A DNA stretch of 41,107 bases from a virus (Duplodnaviria > Caudoviricetes), in the IMG/VR virus record IMGVR_UViG_3300012878_000052, positions 1 to 41,107 of that record; one strand, 5' to 3'. The notes below the pieces were generated by a model, which saw nothing but the letters and a program-made list of their open reading frames with translations, was not told the origin of the DNA and did not search any database. Below, one piece after another: positions 2,405 to 39,786 of this stretch; the stretch's first letter is position 1; each line of letters starts with the position of its first letter. The translations under genes were made by a program, and so were the position numbers.

Positions 2405-3115
2405 TTACAGCGCAGCGACGCGCTCGCGCGCGACCTGGGCGTAGTGCTCAGTGACCTCGCACCCGGTCCAGGCAAAGCCCTCGAGCTGGGCGGCGACCAA
2501 GGTGGTACCGGACCCGGCGAACGGGTCCAGGATGCGGCCGCCCGCTTCGCAGATCCGCACGACCTGACGCATCAGCTCGGTAGGCTTGCCGGTCATGTGC
2601 AGCTTGTCGTCGCGGCGCACTCTGGCTTTGATGACGCCCGGCAGCGTGGGGGCATTGCGGTCCAACGGCATTCCGCCCTTGCTACCCCAGACGATGTATT
2701 CAGCTTGGTTACGGAAGCGGCCTCGCTGTGGGCGCACGCCCTCGGTCTTGTCCCACACCGTGATGCCCCGCCATGTGATGCCTGCGCACTGCAGAGCGTC
2801 CGTTGTCAGCGGCAACTGGCGCCAGTCAGTGAACACGCACACCGGGGCGCCGTCCTTTAGCAGGCGGGCGCATTCGGAGAGCCACATCGTCATCCACTGG
2901 AGGTGCGATCGCTGATCGCGCTCATCGCCCAGGAAGTCGGCGTGCAGCGCCGGCCGGCCACCCTGCGGGTACTTCGCGGATGGTGGCTTCTGCCGGGCGG
3001 CAGCGTTTACCCCACCACTTGCGTAGGGCGGGTCGGTGATCAACGCATCGAACGAACCGGCTTCAAGAGTCGGCAGCAGGGACAGGGCGTCGCCCTTCAA
3101 CAGCAGGTTTTGCAT
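2405..3115 (-). CDS. DNA methyltransferase (N6-adenine/N4-cytosine, beta class)
   Basis: TDPPY catalytic motif near the N-terminus, HMTGKP and LDPFAGSGTT SAM-binding motif near the C-terminus. Start could be 3133. Confidence 0.92.
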   Translation of the reverse strand: MQNLLLKGDALSLLPTLEAGSFDALITDPPYASGGVNAAARQKPPSAKYPQGGRPALHADFLGDERDQRSHLQWMTMWLSECARLLKDGAPVCVFTDWRQLPLTTDALQCAGITWRGITVWDKTEGVRPQRGRFRNQAEYIVWGSKGGMPLDRNAPTLPGVIKARVRRDDKLHMTGKPTELMRQVVRICEAGGRILDPFAGSGTTLVAAQLEGFAWTGCEVTEHYAQVARERVAAL

Positions 3116-3284
3116 GGCAGGAGCCTTCTTCATGTCGCTCGGGGCGAACTGAGGGGAGGCTCTCGGCCTTCATGTGATTGAGCGTGCCGCAGCGCGGGCA
3201 CTTGATTTGTAGCTCGGCGAAGCCAGAAGCCCGGGCCAGCAGCTTGGCGCATTCGCCGCAACGCAGATTCTGCAGGGAAGCCAT
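3063..3284 (-). CDS. com: Mu Com-family zinc-finger regulator
   Basis: LRCGECAKLLA...LQIKCPRCGTLN motif. ATG overlaps the portal stop (TGATG) and the ORF overlaps the MTase start. Confidence 0.85.
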   Translation of the reverse strand: MASLQNLRCGECAKLLARASGFAELQIKCPRCGTLNHMKAESLPSVRPERHEEGSCHAKPAVEGRRPVPAADS

Positions 3285-13466: not shown

Positions 13467-14112
13467 CCTGCTGCCCCCCAACGCCACCAAGCAAGAGGTG
13501 GCGTTTGCAGAGGTGATGGCCAGGACGTCCGCAGTGCCGGTTCCCTTCGCCGAAGCACTGGACCCCATGCGCACGTCCGAAGAGATGCTGCCATGGCTGG
13601 CCTGGTGGTTCAGCGTGGACGCATGGGGCACCGACTGGCCCACTTACGTTCGCCGGCGGACCGTGCAGCAGTCTCTGAGGATCCACAGGCGCAAGGGCAC
13701 GGTAGGCGCGCTGCTTGATGCCATTGATGCCATCGGTGTGCCAGTTGAGATCGAGGAATGGCACCAGCGCAATCCGAAGGGCGCTCCTTACACGTTCCGC
13801 GCGTTGGTCGACGCCGTCTCCACGCCATTCCAAGAGAAAGACCTGCAACGGCTGCTGCAGGCGATCGAGGACAACAAGAACCTGCGCTCGCACATGACCG
13901 AGCTGGTTCCGGGCCTGAGCAGCTATGCCAACCCGTTCGTCGGCGGGCTGACATCGATTGGAACAGATCGCCAGGTGCAGGCGCGGTTCCAGGACATTTC
14001 ATTGCTGCTGGCTGCGATGGAAGAAGGCGACCAGGTGATCGCTGATTCCGTTGACCGACTTCATACCCATCTCAACTTCACGATGCCCGACAGGGCCAAG
14101 GAACAGCCGTGA
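13459..14112 (+). CDS. I: Baseplate/tail protein I with C-terminal extension
   Basis: SLLPPNAT, LPWLAWWFSVDAW, HRRKGTVGA, IEEWHQ...PYTF, KNLRSH. Confidence 0.93.
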   Translation: MSSLLPPNATKQEVAFAEVMARTSAVPVPFAEALDPMRTSEEMLPWLAWWFSVDAWGTDWPTYVRRRTVQQSLRIHRRKGTVGALLDAIDAIGVPVEIEEWHQRNPKGAPYTFRALVDAVSTPFQEKDLQRLLQAIEDNKNLRSHMTELVPGLSSYANPFVGGLTSIGTDRQVQARFQDISLLLAAMEEGDQVIADSVDRLHTHLNFTMPDRAKEQP

Positions 14113-16238
14113 GCGTCAGCAACAAGGTCGACCAGTTCATCAAGGACAGCGATATCGCCCATTCCATCGTGCACGGACGCGCCACGGAAACCATCGAGAC
14201 AGAGGGCGGCCCGGTGCCGACCTTTGCCCGCGCGGTGCAAGGTCTGACCGACCTGCCCGAGCGCGTGCAAATGCTGGAGTCACTGCAGGGCGCAGATCGC
14301 GTCGGCTATGCCACCTGGACGGAGGCCGTCGCGGCCGCTGCCCGCCCGCTCGGTGCGATGGTTGAGATCCCCGTGGAAACCGATCCGGGCTCACACGTCG
14401 ATCCGGTGAAGCCAGGCAATCAGATCGTTCCCAACGGCGGTCTGTACATCCAGCGCCAAACGGGTCTGGAATGGATGCGCCCCGATACGCTGGCGGCAAA
14501 GGCCAATCGGACGGATCTGGTGCCGCTTAAGCAGCAGATGCCCACAAAAGCCGAGCGTGAGCCGCTGGTCGAATCGTTGTACCTGGTGGAATCGCCCATG
14601 GTTCCGCTGGTGGGCGTCACCAGCAAAACCGGAGAAGTGCAGATCCCGCTGCTGTATGACCCGGCGTCGGGCGACCTCATCAACCGCGGCCGAACCGTGC
14701 TGACCGATATCGGCGCGGGTGAGCATCTTGCAGATCTGCATCAGGCCGAGGTCGGCGATGTCGTGCCGATGCTAGGCGTTGCCGACAGTCAGGGAATGAT
14801 CCAGGTCGCCGTGGGCTACAACCCTGCGCTTGGCGCCCTGATCGTTGATGGGCGCCCCCTCGGCGAAGGGGAGTACCCGCTCACGTATGCGGACGCGACC
14901 GCTACTATCGATGGCACCAGCGTCATTGTGCGCGGCGCGCTGCGCACCGCGTCCGGCCTCATCCCGATCAACGGGGTGCTCGACATGGCTCCGCCAGCAC
15001 CGGTGCCGGTCATCGACACCGCCTATACGCTAAAGGCCAACGGCGAGCAGCGTTGGTACGTCAACGACAACGCACCCCTGCCCTATCGCTTCATCACCGA
15101 TGTGTCCTGCCGACACAACAACGCGCTATTGGCAGAGGGTGCTGACTTCCACGTCTGGTACACCGGCGGCAAGCTGCGCGGCGTCGTCGGTAGCGGCACG
15201 CGGGAGGTCTTGCTCACCTATAAAGGCCTTCCCCAGCGCTATGACCTGATCGTGGCCGACGCCATCACCGGCACACTGTCGGTCGTACGCGGCATCGCGC
15301 GCAACGTGGACCCGCAGGAGTACCTGCCAACTGTCCCCATCGGCAAGATCGCGCTGTTCTCTGTGTTCTGCTACGGCCAGACCGTGCGCCTGTATAGCAA
15401 GACGCGTTGGCAGGGCATCACCAAGCGCGGCCGCGACATGAACGCGCTGCGCGAGTACAACCGGAAAGCGCTTGCGCCAATTCGTGCCGCCCTGGCGCAA
15501 CGCCGCGATATCACCTTGGTTGGGTACGGCGATTCGATTACCGCGATGGGTGGGTTCGCACCGCACACCGCCCCGAACACTGCCGCCCGCGATCTGAGGT
15601 CCTTCTTCGTGCAGATGCCGGCCGACACGTACGCCGCAATCCCAGCGCTCGATTTTGGCGACGGCGGCGGCGCCATCCATAGCGACCTGGGTTGGAACAG
15701 GCAGCTGAAGGCATTTCTCGAACACACCTACGGCATGCAGGTGGAGTACCTGAACTACGGCATCGGCGGAACCACCAGCGGCACCGGCGAGAACGCGGCC
15801 CGTCCCAACGGCCTCAACCCGGTTCGCCTGCAGTACGTGGTGGAATCTGTCGAGCAGTCCAGCAAGCCCGTCCTGGTCAACCTCGCCTTCGGAATGAACG
15901 AGCTGGGCAATGGCGCCACGGTGACCAACATGACTGAGCTGGTGCGCACCTTCCAGGCGCTGGGTGCAACGGTTCAGATCCTCGGCGTCCCCCGTCCCAG
16001 CAGCTACGGCGGGTTCGGCAGTCTGCCCGCGTGGCGCTACACCAACGACACCCTCCATGCCGTGGCCATCGCCACCGGCGCGGCGTTCTCGCCCACCGCG
16101 CCTTACTTCGATGAGGAACAGCTCGGCTACATGGGCATTGCTCCCGAATCCTTCGCCGCCGCCGGCAACATCAACCACGCCGGACCGGCCGAATTCCGCT
16201 TTCTCGCCCAACCCATCATCGCCAACTTCGAGATCTGA
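14109..16238 (+). CDS. Tail-associated protein with C-terminal SGNH/GDSL hydrolase domain (putative polysaccharide esterase spike)
   Basis: SGNH blocks GYGDSIT, NYGIGGTTS, AFGMNE and NINH. Translationally coupled to I. Confidence 0.8.
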   Translation: MSVSNKVDQFIKDSDIAHSIVHGRATETIETEGGPVPTFARAVQGLTDLPERVQMLESLQGADRVGYATWTEAVAAAARPLGAMVEIPVETDPGSHVDPVKPGNQIVPNGGLYIQRQTGLEWMRPDTLAAKANRTDLVPLKQQMPTKAEREPLVESLYLVESPMVPLVGVTSKTGEVQIPLLYDPASGDLINRGRTVLTDIGAGEHLADLHQAEVGDVVPMLGVADSQGMIQVAVGYNPALGALIVDGRPLGEGEYPLTYADATATIDGTSVIVRGALRTASGLIPINGVLDMAPPAPVPVIDTAYTLKANGEQRWYVNDNAPLPYRFITDVSCRHNNALLAEGADFHVWYTGGKLRGVVGSGTREVLLTYKGLPQRYDLIVADAITGTLSVVRGIARNVDPQEYLPTVPIGKIALFSVFCYGQTVRLYSKTRWQGITKRGRDMNALREYNRKALAPIRAALAQRRDITLVGYGDSITAMGGFAPHTAPNTAARDLRSFFVQMPADTYAAIPALDFGDGGGAIHSDLGWNRQLKAFLEHTYGMQVEYLNYGIGGTTSGTGENAARPNGLNPVRLQYVVESVEQSSKPVLVNLAFGMNELGNGATVTNMTELVRTFQALGATVQILGVPRPSSYGGFGSLPAWRYTNDTLHAVAIATGAAFSPTAPYFDEEQLGYMGIAPESFAAAGNINHAGPAEFRFLAQPIIANFEI

Positions 16239-25257: not shown

Positions 25258-26309
25258 CCAACCGCATGGGCTACCCCATCCCCGCGTGGCGCGTCACCCT
25301 GGGCGGCAGCGACCTCACCGACCGCATCGCCCCTCGCCTGATCGAGCTGACACTGAAGGAATGCCGGGGCGGCGAGGCTGACCAGCTGGATCTGCGGATC
25401 CACGACCATGACGGGCGCATGGCACTGCCGCGCAAGGGCGTCACCATCGCAGTGGCGATGGGGTGGCGAGACGGCGGCCTGGTGGACAAGGGCACCTTCG
25501 TGGTCGATGAGGTCGAACACAGCGGCCCGCCAGACATCATCACGATCCGCGCCCGTAGCGCGGAGCTGACCAAGACCATGCGGACCCGGCGTGATCGAAG
25601 CTGGCACGACACCACCGTCGGGGCGGTCATCAGCGCGATCGCCGGTGAGCACAGTCTGCGTGCGCGGGTGGCATCGGACTTGGCCAACTTGGATCTGGAT
25701 CACCTGGACCAATCCAACGAGAGCGACGTGGCGCTGCTCACCCGGCTGGGGAAGCGCTTCGATGCGGTGGCCACGGTCAAGGCCGGCTCGCTGTTGTTCG
25801 CCCCGATCGACAGCGGCACCACACCCGCTGGTATCGAACTGCCGCTCGCATCGATTACGCGCAGTGACGGGGACAGCCACAGGTTCAGTGCGAGTGAGCG
25901 AGACACCTACAGCGGCGCACGCGCGTACTGGAACGACAAGAAAGGCGCCCGCCGCAGGTCGGTGCTGGTGGGCACGGCCACCAACGCCAAGACGCTGCGG
26001 GAGACCTTCGACAGCGAGCGAACCGCGCGGGAGCATGCGGATGCCGAATGGAAGCGCGTGCAGCGCGGCGCGGCAAAGCTGGAGTACTCGCTGGCGCTGG
26101 GCCGGGCAACCCTCTACCCCGAGCAGCGCATCGACGTGTCCGGATTCAAGCCCGACATCGATGACCGCACCTGGCTGATCGCCGAGGCAACCCACAGCAT
26201 CACGGGCAGCAGCGGCTTCACCACTTCACTGGTGCTGGAAACCTCAATTTCCACTGGTAGCCCTTTCGACACTGCAAGCGATGCCTCCAGTGATGCTCAG
26301 GCTATCTAG
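25254..26309 (+). CDS. D: Tail/baseplate hub protein D
   Basis: RGGEADQL, KGTFVVDEVEHSGPPD, DQSNESD, SGFKPDID, GFTTSLVLE. Confidence 0.95.
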   Translation: MTNRMGYPIPAWRVTLGGSDLTDRIAPRLIELTLKECRGGEADQLDLRIHDHDGRMALPRKGVTIAVAMGWRDGGLVDKGTFVVDEVEHSGPPDIITIRARSAELTKTMRTRRDRSWHDTTVGAVISAIAGEHSLRARVASDLANLDLDHLDQSNESDVALLTRLGKRFDAVATVKAGSLLFAPIDSGTTPAGIELPLASITRSDGDSHRFSASERDTYSGARAYWNDKKGARRRSVLVGTATNAKTLRETFDSERTAREHADAEWKRVQRGAAKLEYSLALGRATLYPEQRIDVSGFKPDIDDRTWLIAEATHSITGSSGFTTSLVLETSISTGSPFDTASDASSDAQAI

Positions 26310-26781
26310 CAACATCCTTGAAAACATTGGAACAGTAATTTCGCCACACGGCATCCTGAACCTGGACAATGATCTCCCGCCGCGTGGCGTTGAAGAACAC
26401 CGTCTCAAGAACGCTCTGCGGCACAAAGATCCCGACAGAATTGTGCGCGGCCACTTCGCATGGAAAGAGGTCATCAAAGCCGTAGTTGCGGAGGCTCGAC
26501 ATCACCCAACCAGGATGGCCGTCGAGCCTCTTGTAAGCCCACGCGTCCTTGATCTTTGCCATCAAGCCCACCTTGCGCCACGGATACAGCAACGTTACGG
26601 CTCCAACATGGACAACGTGGGAGGAAAGATTCTGGATTGAAATATGGCAACCGGTTTGCCCATCTTCTAGGGCACATACAACAACAACTTTGATATTTGG
26701 TCGGCTCGACTTCCACTGCCAAAAGAACACCACAGTGGAGAGCAGCGCAGCGTAAAGAGCGATGATATCGGTGACACTCAT
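26302..26781 (-). CDS. Hypothetical protein with N-terminal TM helix (moron)
   Basis: IIALYAALLSTVVFFWQW TM segment, lower GC, convergent with D. Start at 26781 or 26802. Confidence 0.75.
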   Translation of the reverse strand: MSVTDIIALYAALLSTVVFFWQWKSSRPNIKVVVVCALEDGQTGCHISIQNLSSHVVHVGAVTLLYPWRKVGLMAKIKDAWAYKRLDGHPGWVMSSLRNYGFDDLFPCEVAAHNSVGIFVPQSVLETVFFNATRREIIVQVQDAVWRNYCSNVFKDVAR

Positions 26782-26917
26782 GGAGTTCGGCCCCGTTTTC
26801 ATGTACTGACTGTTTTTTGCGGATCGTGGCTAGAGCATCCCTCGCTCTGCGACTGGCTTCGGAGGCACCAGCGGCTCTATGACTTGTTCGGCCATCAAGG
26901 TAACCCTACGCCTTAGC

Positions 26918-27835
26918 CTACGCAGGCTCCCGATCAAAGAGCATGCCGTTGAGGGTGTACTTTCTTTTCTTGTGGTCCAAATAGCGATAGGCGCCCTGCT
27001 TGGGACCACTGGAATTAGACCAGCCGGACAGGTCTTTCCACTTCGCTTGATCAAGACGGTCCACATACTCGATCGGATAGTCGAGGAAGCCCATGATCAC
27101 CTTTACGGAATTAACCTCCAAGTTGAGCGACACAGGCTCCCGCACATTGTGATTGTCGCTTACCGCCTGGACATGCACTCCGCCCGATGTGGCGATCGCG
27201 AGCTGGTCAAGAGTGTACTTGGTAGTTTCCCAGTCCTTCACCCCAAAAAAGAACGCGGGGGGCAGCGCGGGTCGCTCAGGCCCATCTGTTTTCTGGCTCA
27301 GAACCTCGTAGAGTCTAGCCCGAACATCATCCTCAGCCAGCTCGTATGCCAGCCGGTATTCTTCTGTCGTGATGGACTGAGTTAGATGCTTCACATTGAG
27401 TATCAGCCTCGCCGCGCGAATCCAGGTGATCCGGTCGTTGTTGCGGTCCTTGAGGAGATTGTGGGCCGATTCAAGCCCTTGCTTGCACTGCTCGTAAATG
27501 ATTCTCGAACGCGCATCGGCACGATCACGTTCGATTTTTCCCTTGTCTCTAGCAAAAGCCAGCACAGCAATGAGCACACCGGTAGCAGCCACAGTGGGCG
27601 CCACAAGATCCTTGGATGATGCGAGAGCCGCACCGAGGGTCGAGTCGCGCACAATCGCAACTACTAACACGACGATCATTACTATCCACATAGACGATGC
27701 CAACAGAATTCCGAACCTTACGTCGTTGCCGCCTGGTGCCCTCTTCGACTTAAGGTCGGTGTTGCAAGCCCACCTGATAAATTTTTCCACCCCGATCGAG
27801 GTTGCTTTGTTTATGTAGTAAACAGTCGATTTCAT
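26918..27835 (-). CDS. Hypothetical 2-TM protein with large soluble domain (moron)
   Basis: 305 aa, two hydrophobic helices then a helical domain (NNDRITWIRAARL), lower GC. Confidence 0.8.
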   Translation of the reverse strand: MKSTVYYINKATSIGVEKFIRWACNTDLKSKRAPGGNDVRFGILLASSMWIVMIVVLVVAIVRDSTLGAALASSKDLVAPTVAATGVLIAVLAFARDKGKIERDRADARSRIIYEQCKQGLESAHNLLKDRNNDRITWIRAARLILNVKHLTQSITTEEYRLAYELAEDDVRARLYEVLSQKTDGPERPALPPAFFFGVKDWETTKYTLDQLAIATSGGVHVQAVSDNHNVREPVSLNLEVNSVKVIMGFLDYPIEYVDRLDQAKWKDLSGWSNSSGPKQGAYRYLDHKKRKYTLNGMLFDREPA

Positions 27836-27864: not shown

Positions 27865-28248
27865 TCACTGCCATTTGCGCTTACGTAGGATGATCCGCAT
27901 TGACCTCGCGAGCACCCCTTCAAAAGTGACGGTGTTTGAACGAACTACGATCCCCGCGACGAGGAAGAAGGCCGCGTGCGTAAGGTGCGATGCCGGCTGG
28001 AGATCGGCAAGTGGGAGTGCCAACCATGCCTGCCATATCGCAACGGTGAGCAGGGCAGTGGCCAACGGTCCGTTACCAGCCCTCCGCTCATTGCCTTGAT
28101 CGTCTTGCCGCACGTGCTTTGCCGCGATGGGGCATGTGATTTGTACATGCCCAGTGAACACCTGCCCGATGGTTGCACCATCAAACACCGTAGTACCGCT
28201 GCACCGGCAACCCGCCGGCAAACCGTTATCCGTACTGCTACACCGCAT
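27865..28248 (-). CDS. Small 2-TM protein with an N-terminal motif shared with the repressor C-terminus
   Basis: 127 aa. TVFDGATIGQVFTGHVQI motif, two hydrophobic segments, basic tail. GGAG/AAGGA upstream. Confidence 0.7.
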   Translation of the reverse strand: MRCSSTDNGLPAGCRCSGTTVFDGATIGQVFTGHVQITCPIAAKHVRQDDQGNERRAGNGPLATALLTVAIWQAWLALPLADLQPASHLTHAAFFLVAGIVVRSNTVTFEGVLARSMRIILRKRKWQ

Positions 28249-28325
28249 AGTCCTTCACACTCCAATCGCGCACTCTCGCGCCCCCTGTTGGAGAGAAGTA
28301 AACCGGGTCCAGTACGGAATAAAAG

Positions 28326-28763
28326 TTAGCGCGCGGGCTTCTTGGTTGCGCCGCTGCCTTTGACGGTCAGCTTCTGATTGCGCAGATCCACATCGCCGCT
28401 GAACTGCTGGCCGATGGTGGCGTCGGTGAAGGTTGTGCGCGGTGCGGCGCCAAGGGCGCTCGCATGCGACACGCTACCGGTCAATGCCGTCAACGCGGCA
28501 GCACGGGCCGGAGCGGGCGCAGCGCGCCAGGCGTCCAGCAGTTCCACGTCGGCCGGTGCCAGGCGCTCGCGGTTGCCGGTCAATACGTATGCAACATCTG
28601 TGCCTAATTCATGGGCCGCAGCGAGGTAGGACGCACTCGCGCCGACACTGTCCTGCTCGTAAAAGATCTGGGTGCGCTTGGTCACTCCGCACGCCACAGC
28701 CATCACCTCCTGGGTAAGGCCCAGTCGCTTCCTTTCTTCCTTAAGCCTTGTGCCCACACTCAC
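28326..28763 (-). CDS. Immunity repressor (XRE HTH) with C-terminal extension
   Basis: VGTRLKEERKRLGLTQ...GVTKRTQIFYEQ...YVLTG. AAGGAGA RBS 7 nt before GTG 28763. Divergent from the early operon. Confidence 0.9.
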   Translation of the reverse strand: MSVGTRLKEERKRLGLTQEVMAVACGVTKRTQIFYEQDSVGASASYLAAAHELGTDVAYVLTGNRERLAPADVELLDAWRAAPAPARAAALTALTGSVSHASALGAAPRTTFTDATIGQQFSGDVDLRNQKLTVKGSGATKKPAR

Positions 28764-28775
28764 GCTCAAATCTCC

Positions 28776-28823
28776 TTGACAGGTGAATGATCTTTCACCA
28801 ACATTGGTGAAAGAAGTTTCACT
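28776..28823. promoter_or_regulatory. Early promoter with two palindromic operators
   Basis: TTGACA-N17-CAACAT (28776-28804). GGTGAA-N6-TTCACC (28782-28799) and GGTGAA-N6-TTCACT (28806-28823). Confidence 0.75.
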
Positions 28824-28858: not shown

Positions 28859-29170
28859 ATGGCTGCAAAACGGACTGGTGTAAAGAAGCTACGCACACCA
28901 GAGCAAGCCCGACAGCATCTTCGCGACAACGGGATCACTGTCGTTGAGTTCGCTCGGCAAAACGGCTTGGATCGCCATGCGGTCAACGACGCGCTTCGGG
29001 GCGTCGGCAAGGGTAACTTCGGCAAGTCGCACGAAGCAGCCGTTGCGTTGGGCATCAAGCGCGACCCCAATTCTTGCACAAATCCCCCCACTTCCCGCCA
29101 GACACCCACGCGTGGCGCCAAGGCTGGCAAAGCTGCTGCAGCGAGGGCCGGGAGCGCGAAGAAGAAATGA
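28859..29170 (+). CDS. Cro/Cox-position DNA-binding protein (BcepMu gp16-like)
   Basis: RTPEQAR...GITVVEFARQNG...GKSHEAAVALGIK. First gene of the early operon. Confidence 0.85.
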   Translation: MAAKRTGVKKLRTPEQARQHLRDNGITVVEFARQNGLDRHAVNDALRGVGKGNFGKSHEAAVALGIKRDPNSCTNPPTSRQTPTRGAKAGKAAAARAGSAKKK

Positions 29171-34500: not shown

Positions 34501-34727
34501 ACCTTGACCGAGTGATTCAGGTGGCTCTGTACGCCATACGCAATGACGGCACCGGCCCGCTGTCCACCGGCGAGGCGCTTACCGCCGCCCTGGTGCTGAA
34601 CCGGCACGACTGGCTGACCGAGATGGACTACACCATCGCCCAGGCTCTTGATCGCATTGATGAGGACACCATCCAGCACCTGGCCGATGCCGCACGCAAC
34701 GTCGCGGAGGGCTTCGATCATGGGTGA
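34497..34727 (+). CDS. Hypothetical protein (76 aa)
   Basis: ATGA coupling. LSTGEALTAALVLNRHDWL...YTIAQALDRI. Confidence 0.75.
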   Translation: MNLDRVIQVALYAIRNDGTGPLSTGEALTAALVLNRHDWLTEMDYTIAQALDRIDEDTIQHLADAARNVAEGFDHG

Positions 34728-36513
34728 GGTCTTCGAAATCCGCCATGCCGGCCTGTTCGCAGGCCTCGGTGCTGGAGCCAAGGGGTTCAACCAGGCACGA
34801 CCGGACATTGGTTCGGCGCGTGCCACGTTCCGGTGCATCGGCGGCATCGATGTGGATCCGGCAGCCATCGCCGACTTCGGGCGCATCGCCGGTGTACCGG
34901 GCACCGTCATGGATCTCTTCTCCCTGCACCAGTACCGCGCGTTCTGGGGCTGTGAGCCGCCGCCGGGCTGGCGTGAGGCTGGCACGGCCGACGTGCACCG
35001 CGCTTTCGGCTACGAGCACCCGCACGTCGTTTTCCTGTCGGCTCCTTGCAAGGGTTTCTCCGGGCTTATGTCGGAAACCAAGAGCAGGACCGCGAAGTAC
35101 CAGGCACTCAACGAACTGACGCTGCGTGGCATCTGGCTCACTTTGGAGGCCTACAAGGATGATCCGGTCGAGATTCTGCTGTTCGAGAACGTCCCCCGCA
35201 TCGCATCGCGCGGCCGCCACCTTCTGGACCAGATCACGCAGCTGCTCCGTGCGTACGGCTACGTGGTGGCGGAGACGACCCACGACTGCGGCGAGTTGGG
35301 CGGACTGGCGCAAAGCCGCAAGCGGTTCCTGCTGGTTGCCCGCCATGCCGAGAAGGTGCCGCCCTTCCTGTACGAGCCAGTGAAGCGCCCCCTTCAGTCG
35401 GTGGGTACGGTGCTCGGCCGCATGCCGCTCGCCGGCGACGTGGAGCGCGCAGGTCCAATGCACCGCGTCCCCTCGCTGCAGTGGAAGACGTGGGTGCGCC
35501 TGGCGTTCGTCGAAGCCGGCAGCGACTGGCGCAGCCTGAATCGCCTTGCGGTGGAAGACGGCGTGCTGCGCGATTACCTGATCCTGCCCGAAAGCCGCGG
35601 CGGATTCCTGGGCGTGCGTAGCTGGGACGACCACAGCGGCACCGTGGCAGGGGAAAGCCTTCCGTCCAACGGCGCGTTCAGCGTTGCGGATCCCCGTGCA
35701 GCTGCCGGTGCGCCGCAGTACCAGCAGTACGGCGTGATGAGCATGGGCGACACCGCTGGCGCGGTGATCGGCGTCAAATCGCCTGGACAAGGTACGTTCT
35801 CTGTCGCTGACCCCCGCCACGGTGGCCCGGCCAAGCACAACAACGAGTACCGCATCGTGGCCTGGCAGGGCGCTGCAGGCGCCGTTACCAGTGCGCATGG
35901 CTCTGGCCAGTGCGTGCAGGATCCTCGATCGCATGGGGTGTTTGAGGGCGCTGGAAAGTACCCGGTGGCGCCATTCGACGCACCTTCGCGGACCGTGATC
36001 GCGCGTAGCGACACCGGCCACGGGGCGTACGCCGTCGCGGATCCCCGCCCGGCCAATCAGCGCCAGCAGGGCGACGCCTATCTGACCAACGGCCACTACG
36101 GCGTGGTGCAGTGGGATGCGTCGAGCGGGGCTGTCAGCGCGGCAGCGGGCCATGACAACGGGAAATGGTCGGTTGCGGATCCCCGATTGCCCGACGCGCG
36201 CAAGAACCTGGTGTGCGTGATTCGGAGCACTGACGACACGTGGCACCGCCCGTTTACCACCTTGGAACTGGCCGCCCTCCAGTCGTTGATCGAGCCTGAA
36301 GAGAAGCTGGAGCTGGATGGGCTGAGCGATCAGGCATGGCGCGAGCGGATCGGCAACGCTGTGCCGCCGTCGTCTGCCCAGGCCATCGGTGAAGAGATCG
36401 GCCGCACGCTGCTGCTGGCCTGGACGGGGCAGACCTTCGCGCTGTCCAGCACGCCGATCTGGGTGCGCGACGTCGCTGTGGCAATGTCACTTCCTGCCGG
36501 GGGTTCCGCATGA
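34720..36513 (+). CDS. C5-cytosine DNA methyltransferase with repeated variable region
   Basis: Motif I LFAGLG, IV SAPCKGFS, VI FENV, VIII QSRKR, X IGNAVPP. GGAGG RBS before 34720. Confidence 0.92.
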   Translation: MGEVFEIRHAGLFAGLGAGAKGFNQARPDIGSARATFRCIGGIDVDPAAIADFGRIAGVPGTVMDLFSLHQYRAFWGCEPPPGWREAGTADVHRAFGYEHPHVVFLSAPCKGFSGLMSETKSRTAKYQALNELTLRGIWLTLEAYKDDPVEILLFENVPRIASRGRHLLDQITQLLRAYGYVVAETTHDCGELGGLAQSRKRFLLVARHAEKVPPFLYEPVKRPLQSVGTVLGRMPLAGDVERAGPMHRVPSLQWKTWVRLAFVEAGSDWRSLNRLAVEDGVLRDYLILPESRGGFLGVRSWDDHSGTVAGESLPSNGAFSVADPRAAAGAPQYQQYGVMSMGDTAGAVIGVKSPGQGTFSVADPRHGGPAKHNNEYRIVAWQGAAGAVTSAHGSGQCVQDPRSHGVFEGAGKYPVAPFDAPSRTVIARSDTGHGAYAVADPRPANQRQQGDAYLTNGHYGVVQWDASSGAVSAAAGHDNGKWSVADPRLPDARKNLVCVIRSTDDTWHRPFTTLELAALQSLIEPEEKLELDGLSDQAWRERIGNAVPPSSAQAIGEEIGRTLLLAWTGQTFALSSTPIWVRDVAVAMSLPAGGSA

Positions 36514-38213: not shown

Positions 38214-38253
38214 ATCAGGCACTTCGGGGAAACCCTAAGTGCCTGATTTCTTT
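38214..38253 (+). terminator. Hairpin/terminator between int and the tRNA 3' end
   Basis: ATCAGGCACTT...AAGTGCCTGAT followed by TTCTTT. Confidence 0.65.
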
Positions 38254-38328
38254 GGTGGGCCCAGAAGGATTCGAACCTTCAACCAAAGGATTATGAGTCC
38301 TCTGCTCTAACCGTTGAGCTATAGGCCC
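38253..38328 (-). tRNA. ileX: tRNA-Ile2 (CAT anticodon, lysidine-modified); tRNA-Met not fully excluded
   Basis: 76-nt cloverleaf GGGCCTA...CTCATAA...TTCGAAT...TGGGCCCACCA. C4-G69/C5-G68 TilS determinants. Location near rpoD as for E. coli ileX. Confidence 0.9.
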
Positions 38329-38385: not shown

Positions 38386-39786
38386 TCATCCAAAACGCTG
38401 CCCCATCGCCTGCACCCGGCGTGCATTCTCCGCCGCCAGCTCGCGCAGTACCGCCGAGCGCAGCAGCGTCGATCCCGCCACGCGCTGCCAATAATCCGCT
38501 GCCAGCGGTGCCGCCCACTGCAGGTACGCAAGCTGGCCGCTGCGCTCCGGGGCGACGGACGCCAGCGGCGTGGGCGCGCGCAGTACCCCGGTGCGCGAAG
38601 GCGCCAGTGACATCGGCAGCATGTCGTAGACCGGTGCCAGCGCCAGCGGGCCGCGATCGACCAGGTGAAAGCCGAGATTGCCCTGATGCATGTCGCTGTT
38701 GCCGATAAGCCGGCCAAACGCGTGCAGTCTGCCCATGGTGGCCTGCGCGTCGCGATCTACCCAGCCCTGCGACAGCAGCGCGTCGCCTGACGTTCCCCAG
38801 TCCAGGATCGCATCGCCCACGAAGGCCGATGACAACGCCAGTAACGAGACGAAACCACGCCTCCCGAGCACGTCGACGGTGCGGTCGAAGCGCTGCACCT
38901 CCAGGAAGGTATGCGTGTCGGTCTGGAGGATCTCCGAGGCTGCCGCCTGCATGCCGGCGTCGCGCAGGCACTGCAGGGCCAGGTGCTCGCAGACCAGCAG
39001 GTCCGCCCAGCGCTCTGCGGCCTGCCCTGCGGTGGGCTGCGCGAACTTGACCAGCGCCGCGTAGCGGCCACCGTCATGCTCCACCGTGGCGGTGAACTTC
39101 GGTTGCTCGCCACCGGGCGACGAGCCGACGTCTTCGCCTTCCAGTGCAGTCGCGGCACGCTCGGGATAGCGGCGTGCACGTTCCCCCGCCGGAACCCGGT
39201 CACCGGGCGCGTCCAGCCCGCGCAGCGCCATCTGCACCGCATCGCCGCCGAGCAGGAGGTCACCGATTTCAGTTCCGCCTGCACGGACGAGTGCCTGTAG
39301 GGTATCGGCCAGCTGCCATCGGTTGAGGTCGTCGGGAACGCCCAGATCCCGGCCGCGACGATGCGCGAAGGTGCGACCGAGAAATCCCTGCGGACGCAGG
39401 TCGTCCAGGTACCACGGCAGCCCCGGGAAGTGGCCTTCGACCGTCTCGTCCGGCGAACGGGTCAGATTCGGGCGCGCGGCGTTGACCGCGACGTGGAAGG
39501 TGTCGCCCGTGAGTGCCACGACCGTGCCCAGCTCTTCGAGGCTGGCATCGGGCCGCAGCCGGAACAGCGGCCATTCGCTGCCCGCTGCGGTGTACTGCCG
39601 GACCGCATAGGCCGTGGCGCGGGTGCGGCCAATCCGGACGATGCGCTCCCCCGCCTCGGCCACAAGACGACTCAAGGTTGTGCGGGTGACCCCGAGGCGA
39701 TCGATGAGATCGGCCGCGGACACCACCTCCCCGGCAGGCAGGCTGTCGAACAGCGTCTGGAGCTGAAGCGTGCGGGGACGGGCCAT
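38386..39786 (-). CDS. yjjJ: HipA-family Ser/Thr kinase toxin, YjjJ-like (host)
   Basis: N-terminal HTH, DLRPQGFLGR, SSPGGEQPKF, GNSDMHQGN, LAPVYDMLPM. Confidence 0.9.
   Translation of the reverse strand: MARPRTLQLQTLFDSLPAGEVVSAADLIDRLGVTRTTLSRLVAEAGERIVRIGRTRATAYAVRQYTAAGSEWPLFRLRPDASLEELGTVVALTGDTFHVAVNAARPNLTRSPDETVEGHFPGLPWYLDDLRPQGFLGRTFAHRRGRDLGVPDDLNRWQLADTLQALVRAGGTEIGDLLLGGDAVQMALRGLDAPGDRVPAGERARRYPERAATALEGEDVGSSPGGEQPKFTATVEHDGGRYAALVKFAQPTAGQAAERWADLLVCEHLALQCLRDAGMQAAASEILQTDTHTFLEVQRFDRTVDVLGRRGFVSLLALSSAFVGDAILDWGTSGDALLSQGWVDRDAQATMGRLHAFGRLIGNSDMHQGNLGFHLVDRGPLALAPVYDMLPMSLAPSRTGVLRAPTPLASVAPERSGQLAYLQWAAPLAADYWQRVAGSTLLRSAVLRELAAENARRVQAMGQRFG

Follow-up and report, generated by a model that had tools for sequence, protein, structure and literature searches.

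A terminal motif shared by a P2-like prophage repressor and the product of the next gene suggests a link between the lysogeny switch and the cell membrane

The putative immunity repressor of a P2-like prophage ends in an 18-residue motif that recurs near the start of the protein encoded just downstream. Judged from their sequences, repressor and partner form a real, widespread and co-evolving module, for which a mechanism can only be proposed. The pairing likely marks a physical connection, apparently not described so far, of the lysogeny switch with the cell membrane. We propose, with a probability of about 0.5, that the motif is a homotypic beta-stacking dock through which a predicted membrane partner would capture and release the repressor, thereby tuning lysogeny and induction.

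The repressor locus and its partner ORF

The window, i.e., the whole 41-kb stretch of DNA analyzed, carries a P2-like prophage with portal, baseplate and tail genes, gpD, a divergent block of repressor, HTH and ogr genes, a 900-aa replication gene, an integrase and a tRNA-Met (38253-38328). An XRE-family repressor gene (28326..28763, minus strand, 145 aa; Pfam, PHROG and AF2 model) lies between gpD and the replication gene; its named homologues are from Stenotrophomonas and the nearest named phage is Smp131. An operator-like inverted repeat (28783..28822, 19-nt arms, 84%) separates the repressor from the divergent early gene and is a putative operator. The divergent small HTH gene (28859..29170, plus strand; phrog_925 by Pfam/PHROG) is likely the lytic counterpart of the repressor and is followed by an Ogr-like gene. 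P2-like (Peduoviridae, Smp131-like) immunity repressors are encoded by XRE HTH genes transcribed divergently from a small HTH gene and ogr, and by this layout we assign the XRE gene of the window to them, its repressing activity being putative.

The repressor consists of an HTH, two further helices, a disordered tail and a basic end. Its N-terminus is an XRE-type HTH (phrog_8, E = 2e-9; Pfam HTH_31, E = 6e-5, a match below the curated cut-off), and the AF2 model, obtained with a 53-row alignment, is helical up to residue 102 and has no secondary structure beyond (pLDDT 57-72). No S24 peptidase domain was detected by Pfam in the 145 residues, which places the protein outside the LexA/CI-type self-cleaving class.

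Elsewhere in the window, we noted two DNA methyltransferase genes (2405-3133, minus strand, and 34648-36513, plus strand), of N6/N4 type (E = 3e-30) and C5 type (E = 3e-13), respectively. A 709-aa gene of the tail region (14109-16238, plus strand) has a GDSL-like hydrolase domain (E = 1e-6) and is a candidate tail-spike esterase. Beyond the tRNA-Met, a HipA-like kinase gene with an N-terminal HTH (38386-39786, minus strand) is probably outside the prophage.

The repressor tail holds the motif TTFTDATIGQQFSGDVDL (residues 110-127; 28383..28436, minus strand), which is kept across homologues. The partner ORF (27865..28248, minus strand, 127 aa) begins 77 nt downstream, and motif comparison located TVFDGATIGQVFTGHVQI in its N-terminal region (residues 20-37; 28138..28191, minus strand). 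The coordinates, the 77-nt distance and the 10 identities over 18 residues given in the initial annotation were all reproduced, and its remark that shared residues use different codons held as well, with only 4 of the 10 identities encoded by the same codon. It had described the partner as starting with the motif; the motif is indeed N-terminal, but begins at residue 20, after a Cys-rich leader. Over the whole proteins, the local alignment score of 49 was reached by 0.32% of 20,000 ORF shuffles, and no third copy of the motif was found in the 41-kb window. The spacer (28249..28325, minus strand) contains an RBS-like GAAGGA (28256-28251) just 5' of the ATG and can form an RBS-covering hairpin (-21.5 kcal/mol, a raw energy without shuffle control). 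No terminator-like site was found in this spacer, and a promoter and terminator scan gave no score above shuffles.

Behind its leader and motif, the partner has a linker, one or two hydrophobic helices and a basic C-terminus. Helix 1 (residues 62-80; 28009..28065, minus strand) is a predicted TM segment with a KD of 1.69 over 19 residues, and helix 2 (residues 86-102; 27943..27993, minus strand) is a weaker TM candidate, with a KD of 1.72 over 17 residues but 1.37 over 19. Because of this last value, the two TM helices initially assigned to the partner are plausible but not firm: the first passes and the second is borderline. Searches of Pfam, PHROG, PADLOC and NCBIfam with the window partner gave no significant match, the ESM Atlas gave no usable one, and a PDB sequence search with the partner family gave no meaningful one. 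The protein has neither a Flk-like nor a periplasmic domain.

A motif-bearing ORF was present in all 64 distinct 600-nt contexts of the window's repressor family (81 loci), and the lack of conservation that the initial annotation had considered as a ground for dropping its proposal was not observed. Over 51 alleles, the partner motif showed a pS of 0.615 and a pN of 0.127 (pN/pS 0.21), with third positions variable at 19 of 19 codons; the shifted frames of the same strand gave pN/pS ratios of 1.8 and 2.6. Conserved cysteines flank the motif, CxC before and C after, each in 52 of 55 variants, and in an alignment of 27 window-family partners only the start, the motif and these cysteines were invariant or nearly so. 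These data suggest that the partner ORF is probably a protein-coding gene, under protein-level selection, and the claim that the motif is kept at the protein level stands, in its own frame only. In Smp131 (JQ809663; L017:3001-3420), the motif ORF behind the repressor is present but unannotated, and the repressor frame is broken after ~35 codons in the public record, where it is annotated as 54 aa.

Recurrence and co-variation of the pair

We gathered 476 loci, including the window, and kept 457 of them (14 had no downstream DNA, 2 were truncated and 3 were too short). Clustering at 60% sorted the repressors, which belong to P2-like and Mu-like phages, into 135 groups. Each ORF that starts within 250 nt was then scored, over its first 75 residues, with an HMM made from repressor tails only, and counted as a motif-bearing neighbour if it passed the 99th percentile of the scores of 1,804 opposite-strand windows. 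Such a neighbour was found at 42 of 80 tailed repressor clusters versus 0 of 55 tail-less ones (Fisher p = 1e-12, for loci sampled by similarity to tailed repressors and clusters related to one another), and at 1 or 2 of 57-59 tail-less clusters when stricter tail thresholds were applied. The motif thus recurs, as had been predicted, as pairs of a repressor C-terminus and a neighbour N-terminus. A relaxed rule, which adds cognate similarity, placed a partner beside 54 of the 80 tailed clusters and left 26 without an adjacent one; five of these 26 had a partner further downstream, two from Xanthomonas had only a tiny ORF, and the others had no partner within the DNA examined. When the 9,491 other ORFs of the representative loci were scored for the motif, the top seven all came from tailed loci, and five of these loci had been classed as partner-less.

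The pairing of tailed repressors spans P2-like and Mu-like phages of Stenotrophomonas, Xanthomonas, Burkholderia, Ralstonia, Pseudomonas, Aeromonas and enterobacteria. Named phages with matched tail and head variants include KS5, AP3, phiE094, RsoM1USA, BcepMu and B3, and no motif was found in the gene next to the tail-less repressors of Dobby, Fc22, U11, Milagro, YO004, Acica and Alfacinha1. Tail and head of a given locus carry the same form of the motif: Burkholderia and Ralstonia phages have F-x-G-x-[VI]-G-Q, B3 and enterobacterial prophages have G-x-x-N-R-x-A-G-R-D, and a Comamonas locus has N-V-Q-x-G-N. The absence of an S24 domain had been advanced in support of a role for the motif. We discarded this argument, as 49 clusters of short repressors without a tail are too short for S24 as well.

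Two kinds of atypical loci were recorded. In one tail-less cluster (L229 and L232), the next gene encodes a Flk-like helical domain plus a G/N-rich beta-like stretch, which by its sequence is an exception to the pairing of tail and partner. In addition, a second motif-bearing ORF occurs in L278 (+695 from the repressor stop), in L213 (upstream, on the opposite strand) and in L086, so one repressor may have two partners at these loci.

Tail and head sequences co-vary, as the initial annotation had anticipated. Over the 42 uncurated pairs, cognate motifs had a mean score of 39.4 versus 26.2 for swapped ones (z = 10.4; 0 of 100,000 permutations), and the cognate outscored a swap with the nearest relative in 35 pairs. 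Tail similarity still predicted head similarity once HTH similarity was removed (partial Mantel r = 0.45). In a quick HTH tree (98 columns), tail status switched 23 times; only three independent pairs were supported, too few to give a test of independence any power.

The cognate motif ranked first in only 11 of the 42 pairs (median rank 5), and many non-cognate pairs score like cognates. This could be expected from a decoy, i.e., a partner that traps the tailed repressors of other, related phages or prophages so as to change their choice of lysogeny and matches its own repressor by descent only, and both the motif-only peptides of 21-51 aa that occur among partners and the anti-repressor-like domain of many others are compatible with it. 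However, the own repressor is the one matched best on average, which a decoy should avoid, and we regard this explanation as very unlikely. Alternatively, the motifs may not bind each other, each of them self-assembling or binding a common third factor. Tailed repressors without a partner, fusions that keep a single motif and the two motif-bearing neighbours of L278 would fit such a scheme, but direct contact is the simplest account of a co-variation that exceeds HTH relatedness and of the near-absence of partners beside tail-less repressors; a third factor would, moreover, need to change in step. We consider this alternative quite unlikely.

Cognate motifs shared codons slightly more often than codon usage predicts (147 of 301 versus 123.7, z = 2.8), so some tail-head pairs may have been seeded or refreshed by duplication. 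The same small excess would agree with the head being a relic, a functionless copy of the repressor 3' end, or with a chance likeness. Yet half of the identical residues differ in codon, purifying selection acts on the partner motif in its own frame only, and the motif persists in all 64 contexts, the remainder of the ORF being divergent. The relic or chance reading is thus largely refuted and, in our opinion, extremely improbable.

Partner bodies and effector fusions

The 82 non-redundant partners comprised 20 of the window type, 38 with a helical domain and 24 that were other or very short; a TM-like segment was present in 51 of them at KD >= 1.6 and in 60 at 1.4. The partner motif is constant and the body is replaceable: the motif may precede hydrophobic helices, a domain like Flk/ORF6C, or an in-frame PIN or TIR domain, or stand in a tiny peptide. 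With the motif constant and everything behind it swappable, direct homotypic contact is the simplest reading.

Helical-domain partners of enterobacteria and pseudomonads match Flk (NF007987, E down to 5e-18; also Flk_N), far under the equivalog cut-off (65 versus 353 bits). Flk (Fluke/RflH) is described as a tail-anchored flagellar switch regulator of Salmonella (PMC13344023). The window partner matched neither NF007987 nor PF27202 and does not show the Flk arrangement of an N-terminal domain and a C-terminal anchor; in its relatives, which match the domain but stay below the cut-off, the Flk-like domain implies no flagellar role. Several helical-domain partners match anti-repressor PHROGs 245/2127 (E = 6e-7 to 8e-3), with weak matches to ORF6C and the Ant family, and many Burkholderiales partners carry an extra small Cys-containing outer domain that is DUF1496-like.

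A Foldseek search with the model of the L139 Flk-like partner returned nothing at E <= 0.001. Its best rows were, in the PDB, the Sak/Stl complex (E = 0.7) and the Red-beta C-terminal domain (E = 2.6) and, in BFVD, an ORF6C protein (E = 0.002); together they are no more than a weak lead. This helical domain (L139:2913-3539) weakly resembles the C-terminal domains of the Sak, Erf and Red-beta annealing proteins, which may point to a protein-binding role. One-gene forms were also recovered: P0237 joins HTH, motif and helical domain (E = 3e-11), and P0271 joins HTH, motif and two TM segments in a single metagenome contig that could be an artefact.

In the window family, cargo genes insert directly behind the partner ORF. 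The slot between partner and gpD is a cargo hotspot, occupied in the window by two variable ORFs without family match (305 aa and 166 aa; 26302..27835, minus strand), outside the conserved pair, and in relatives by PIN_8, ParA-like ATPases, TIR or other genes. At five window-family loci, the motif ORF is in frame with PIN_8 (L039:3012-4601, L048:3009-4574 and L053) or with a CAP12/Pycsar TIR (L031:3014-3988 and L051), and a search for longer forms yielded two more motif-PIN proteins, P0274 and P0275. The partner helices are lost where PIN_8 (3 loci) or TIR (2 loci) is in frame and kept where PIN is separate (7 loci). The in-frame linkers are free of stops and only 4-8% identical among the three PIN loci; a stop-free linker has a chance of 0.33-0.48 per locus, and each of the fused effectors possesses an internal ATG that is preceded by a purine-rich stretch. 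From their sequences, these ORFs are suggestive of real fusions without being proof of them.

The fusions bear on the possibility that the pair is an amyloid-signalling defence, in which the phage's own repressor, or that of an incoming related phage, would act as a template for the partner, and the partner would kill the cell or halt its growth via its membrane helices or via a fused PIN or TIR domain. A BASS-like layout and composition (see below), the five in-frame loci with their stop-free linkers, the further motif-PIN proteins P0274 and P0275 and the position of the partner at a cargo hotspot would all suit a defence role. Against it, PIN stands apart as its own gene at 7 of the 10 PIN loci, the internal ATGs and the chance of an open linker weaken the case for fusion, neither the window partner nor two Flk-like partners have a PADLOC match, the polarity is reversed relative to BASS, and to let a repressor that is always present nucleate a toxin would be hazardous. 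We thus find a defence function unlikely, and membrane toxicity triggered by the repressor, the first option of the initial annotation, is weakened by the replaceable body, the missing PADLOC match and a BASS polarity that makes the repressor the target.

A separate observation concerns Xanthomonas-type loci (L081-L099, L123, L124, L128 and L129), in which A_AAA_AAG encodes the basic end of the repressor in 19 of 19 distinct contexts. The -1 frame at the repressor 3' end is open for 23-47 codons and contains a motif-like I-x-[LVI]-x-I-G-Q-L-[VL]; this mini-ORF has a pN of 0.31 versus a pS of 0.35. In three of these contexts the overlapping codon is a non-start codon (GTA, CTG), so that a -1 frameshift might yield a longer repressor, at a site confined to two related clusters and in lysine runs that make such heptamers likely.

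Comparison with amyloid pairs and proposed capture of the repressor

Bacterial amyloid signalling pairs include BASS1-10, with Bell and NLR proteins (Dyrka et al., 10.1101/2020.01.06.895854), and BASS11, the Bab/Agp pair of E. coli (Ibarlosa et al., 10.1101/2024.11.07.622273). Like these, our pair has a motif of 20-25 residues rich in G, N, Q and V, which one product carries C-terminally and its neighbour N-terminally; the two copies match within a locus, and varied domains, TIR included, are joined to the motif. The motif is rich in Q, N, G, V and I and poor in L, P and K; in HMM-defined segments, G was 0.15 versus 0.06-0.09, N 0.06-0.08 versus 0.02-0.03 and L 0.01-0.02 versus 0.10-0.11, K being high in repressor tails because of the basic end. 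Unlike BASS and Bab/Agp, the pair occurs in temperate phages of proteobacteria and lacks Bell, NLR and TPR-GreA-PIN domains; Pfam, PHROG and PADLOC found no NLR or TPR-GreA/B-PIN sensor domain in repressor, partner or neighbours. The C-terminal motif sits on an XRE HTH protein, the lysogeny repressor, rather than on a Bell, TIR, CHAT or hydrolase effector, and TIR and PIN are joined, at five loci, only to the protein with the N-terminal motif.

The motif is also comparable to RHIM, fungal PP and BASS3 in being a short, beta-prone, homotypic motif. The tetrad [VI]Q[VILC]G, which we take to be of the RHIM type, is present in 4 of 80 tails and 3 of 82 partners, and Pfam RHIM gave no match at E <= 0.1 in window proteins. 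Unlike RHIM and BASS3, whose signature is G-phi-Q-phi-G (10.1101/2020.01.06.895854), the window motif lacks this core and reads I-G-Q-x-F-x-G. The shared motif had been presented as a hallmark of amyloid signalling: the layout and the enrichment in G and N with depletion of L agree with that view, but sensor, effector and core do not. On its sequence, the pair is therefore not a member of BASS or RHIM, and has a layout like that of amyloid pairs. The word "repressor" is absent from the main texts of both BASS reports (10.1101/2020.01.06.895854 and 10.1101/2024.11.07.622273). No account of a motif shared by a repressor and its neighbour was found in a literature search mostly confined to journals without subscription, and the supplementary motif tables of the two preprints could hold such pairs.

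A second protein that would bind and remove a transcription regulator recalls the membrane sequestration of Mlc by PtsG and of sigma-E by RseA, and also phage anti-repressors of the ORF6C type, weakly matched by some partners. Anti-repressors are usually soluble and separately controlled. All these systems bind through unlike folded surfaces and not through a motif common to both proteins.

In BASS and Bab/Agp, the N-terminal motif belongs to the sensor and the C-terminal motif to the regulated protein (10.1101/2024.11.07.622273), which by analogy makes the partner the input and the repressor the regulated protein. With the partner as input, we favour capture that tunes lysogeny over a repressor-triggered toxin, self-assembly, a decoy or a relic; tethering of the repressor, the second option of the initial annotation, is thus our preferred reading. 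Both genes would be expressed from one lysogenic transcript. The repressor tail would be disordered when alone and adopt a beta-arch fold only when stacked on like motifs, and such stacking might also join repressor dimers into larger units, replacing the C-terminal domain of CI-type repressors. By joining the stack, the partner motif would hold the repressor at the inner membrane, and a change in the state of the partner would shift the level of free repressor. Candidate changes are clustering and an altered redox or metal state of the cysteines next to the motif, and a periplasmic cue may be the input in relatives with an outer domain. As the outcome of capture, we lean toward de-repression rather than buffering. 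Points against capture are the tailed clusters without an adjacent partner, the partner-like neighbour of one tail-less cluster, the small number of pairs in which the cognate ranks first, the slight excess of shared codons and the absence of Flk-like and periplasmic domains from the window partner. A bolder version, a prion-like amyloid relay that runs the lysis-lysogeny switch of temperate phages across the Proteobacteria, appears doubtful to us: a membrane sensor would nucleate a cross-beta repressor tail and cause an all-or-none, possibly heritable inactivation free of RecA and of cleavage, some relays having been rewired to PIN or TIR defence.

How prophages with non-self-cleaving repressors sense the state of their host is largely open, and the pair offers a candidate input. 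It also offers a candidate interface of two peptides that a single proline could alter. The link to the Flk domain provides a lead on how a flagellar regulator arose. Should the motif prove amyloid, amyloid signalling would reach from cell-death immunity to a transcriptional switch.
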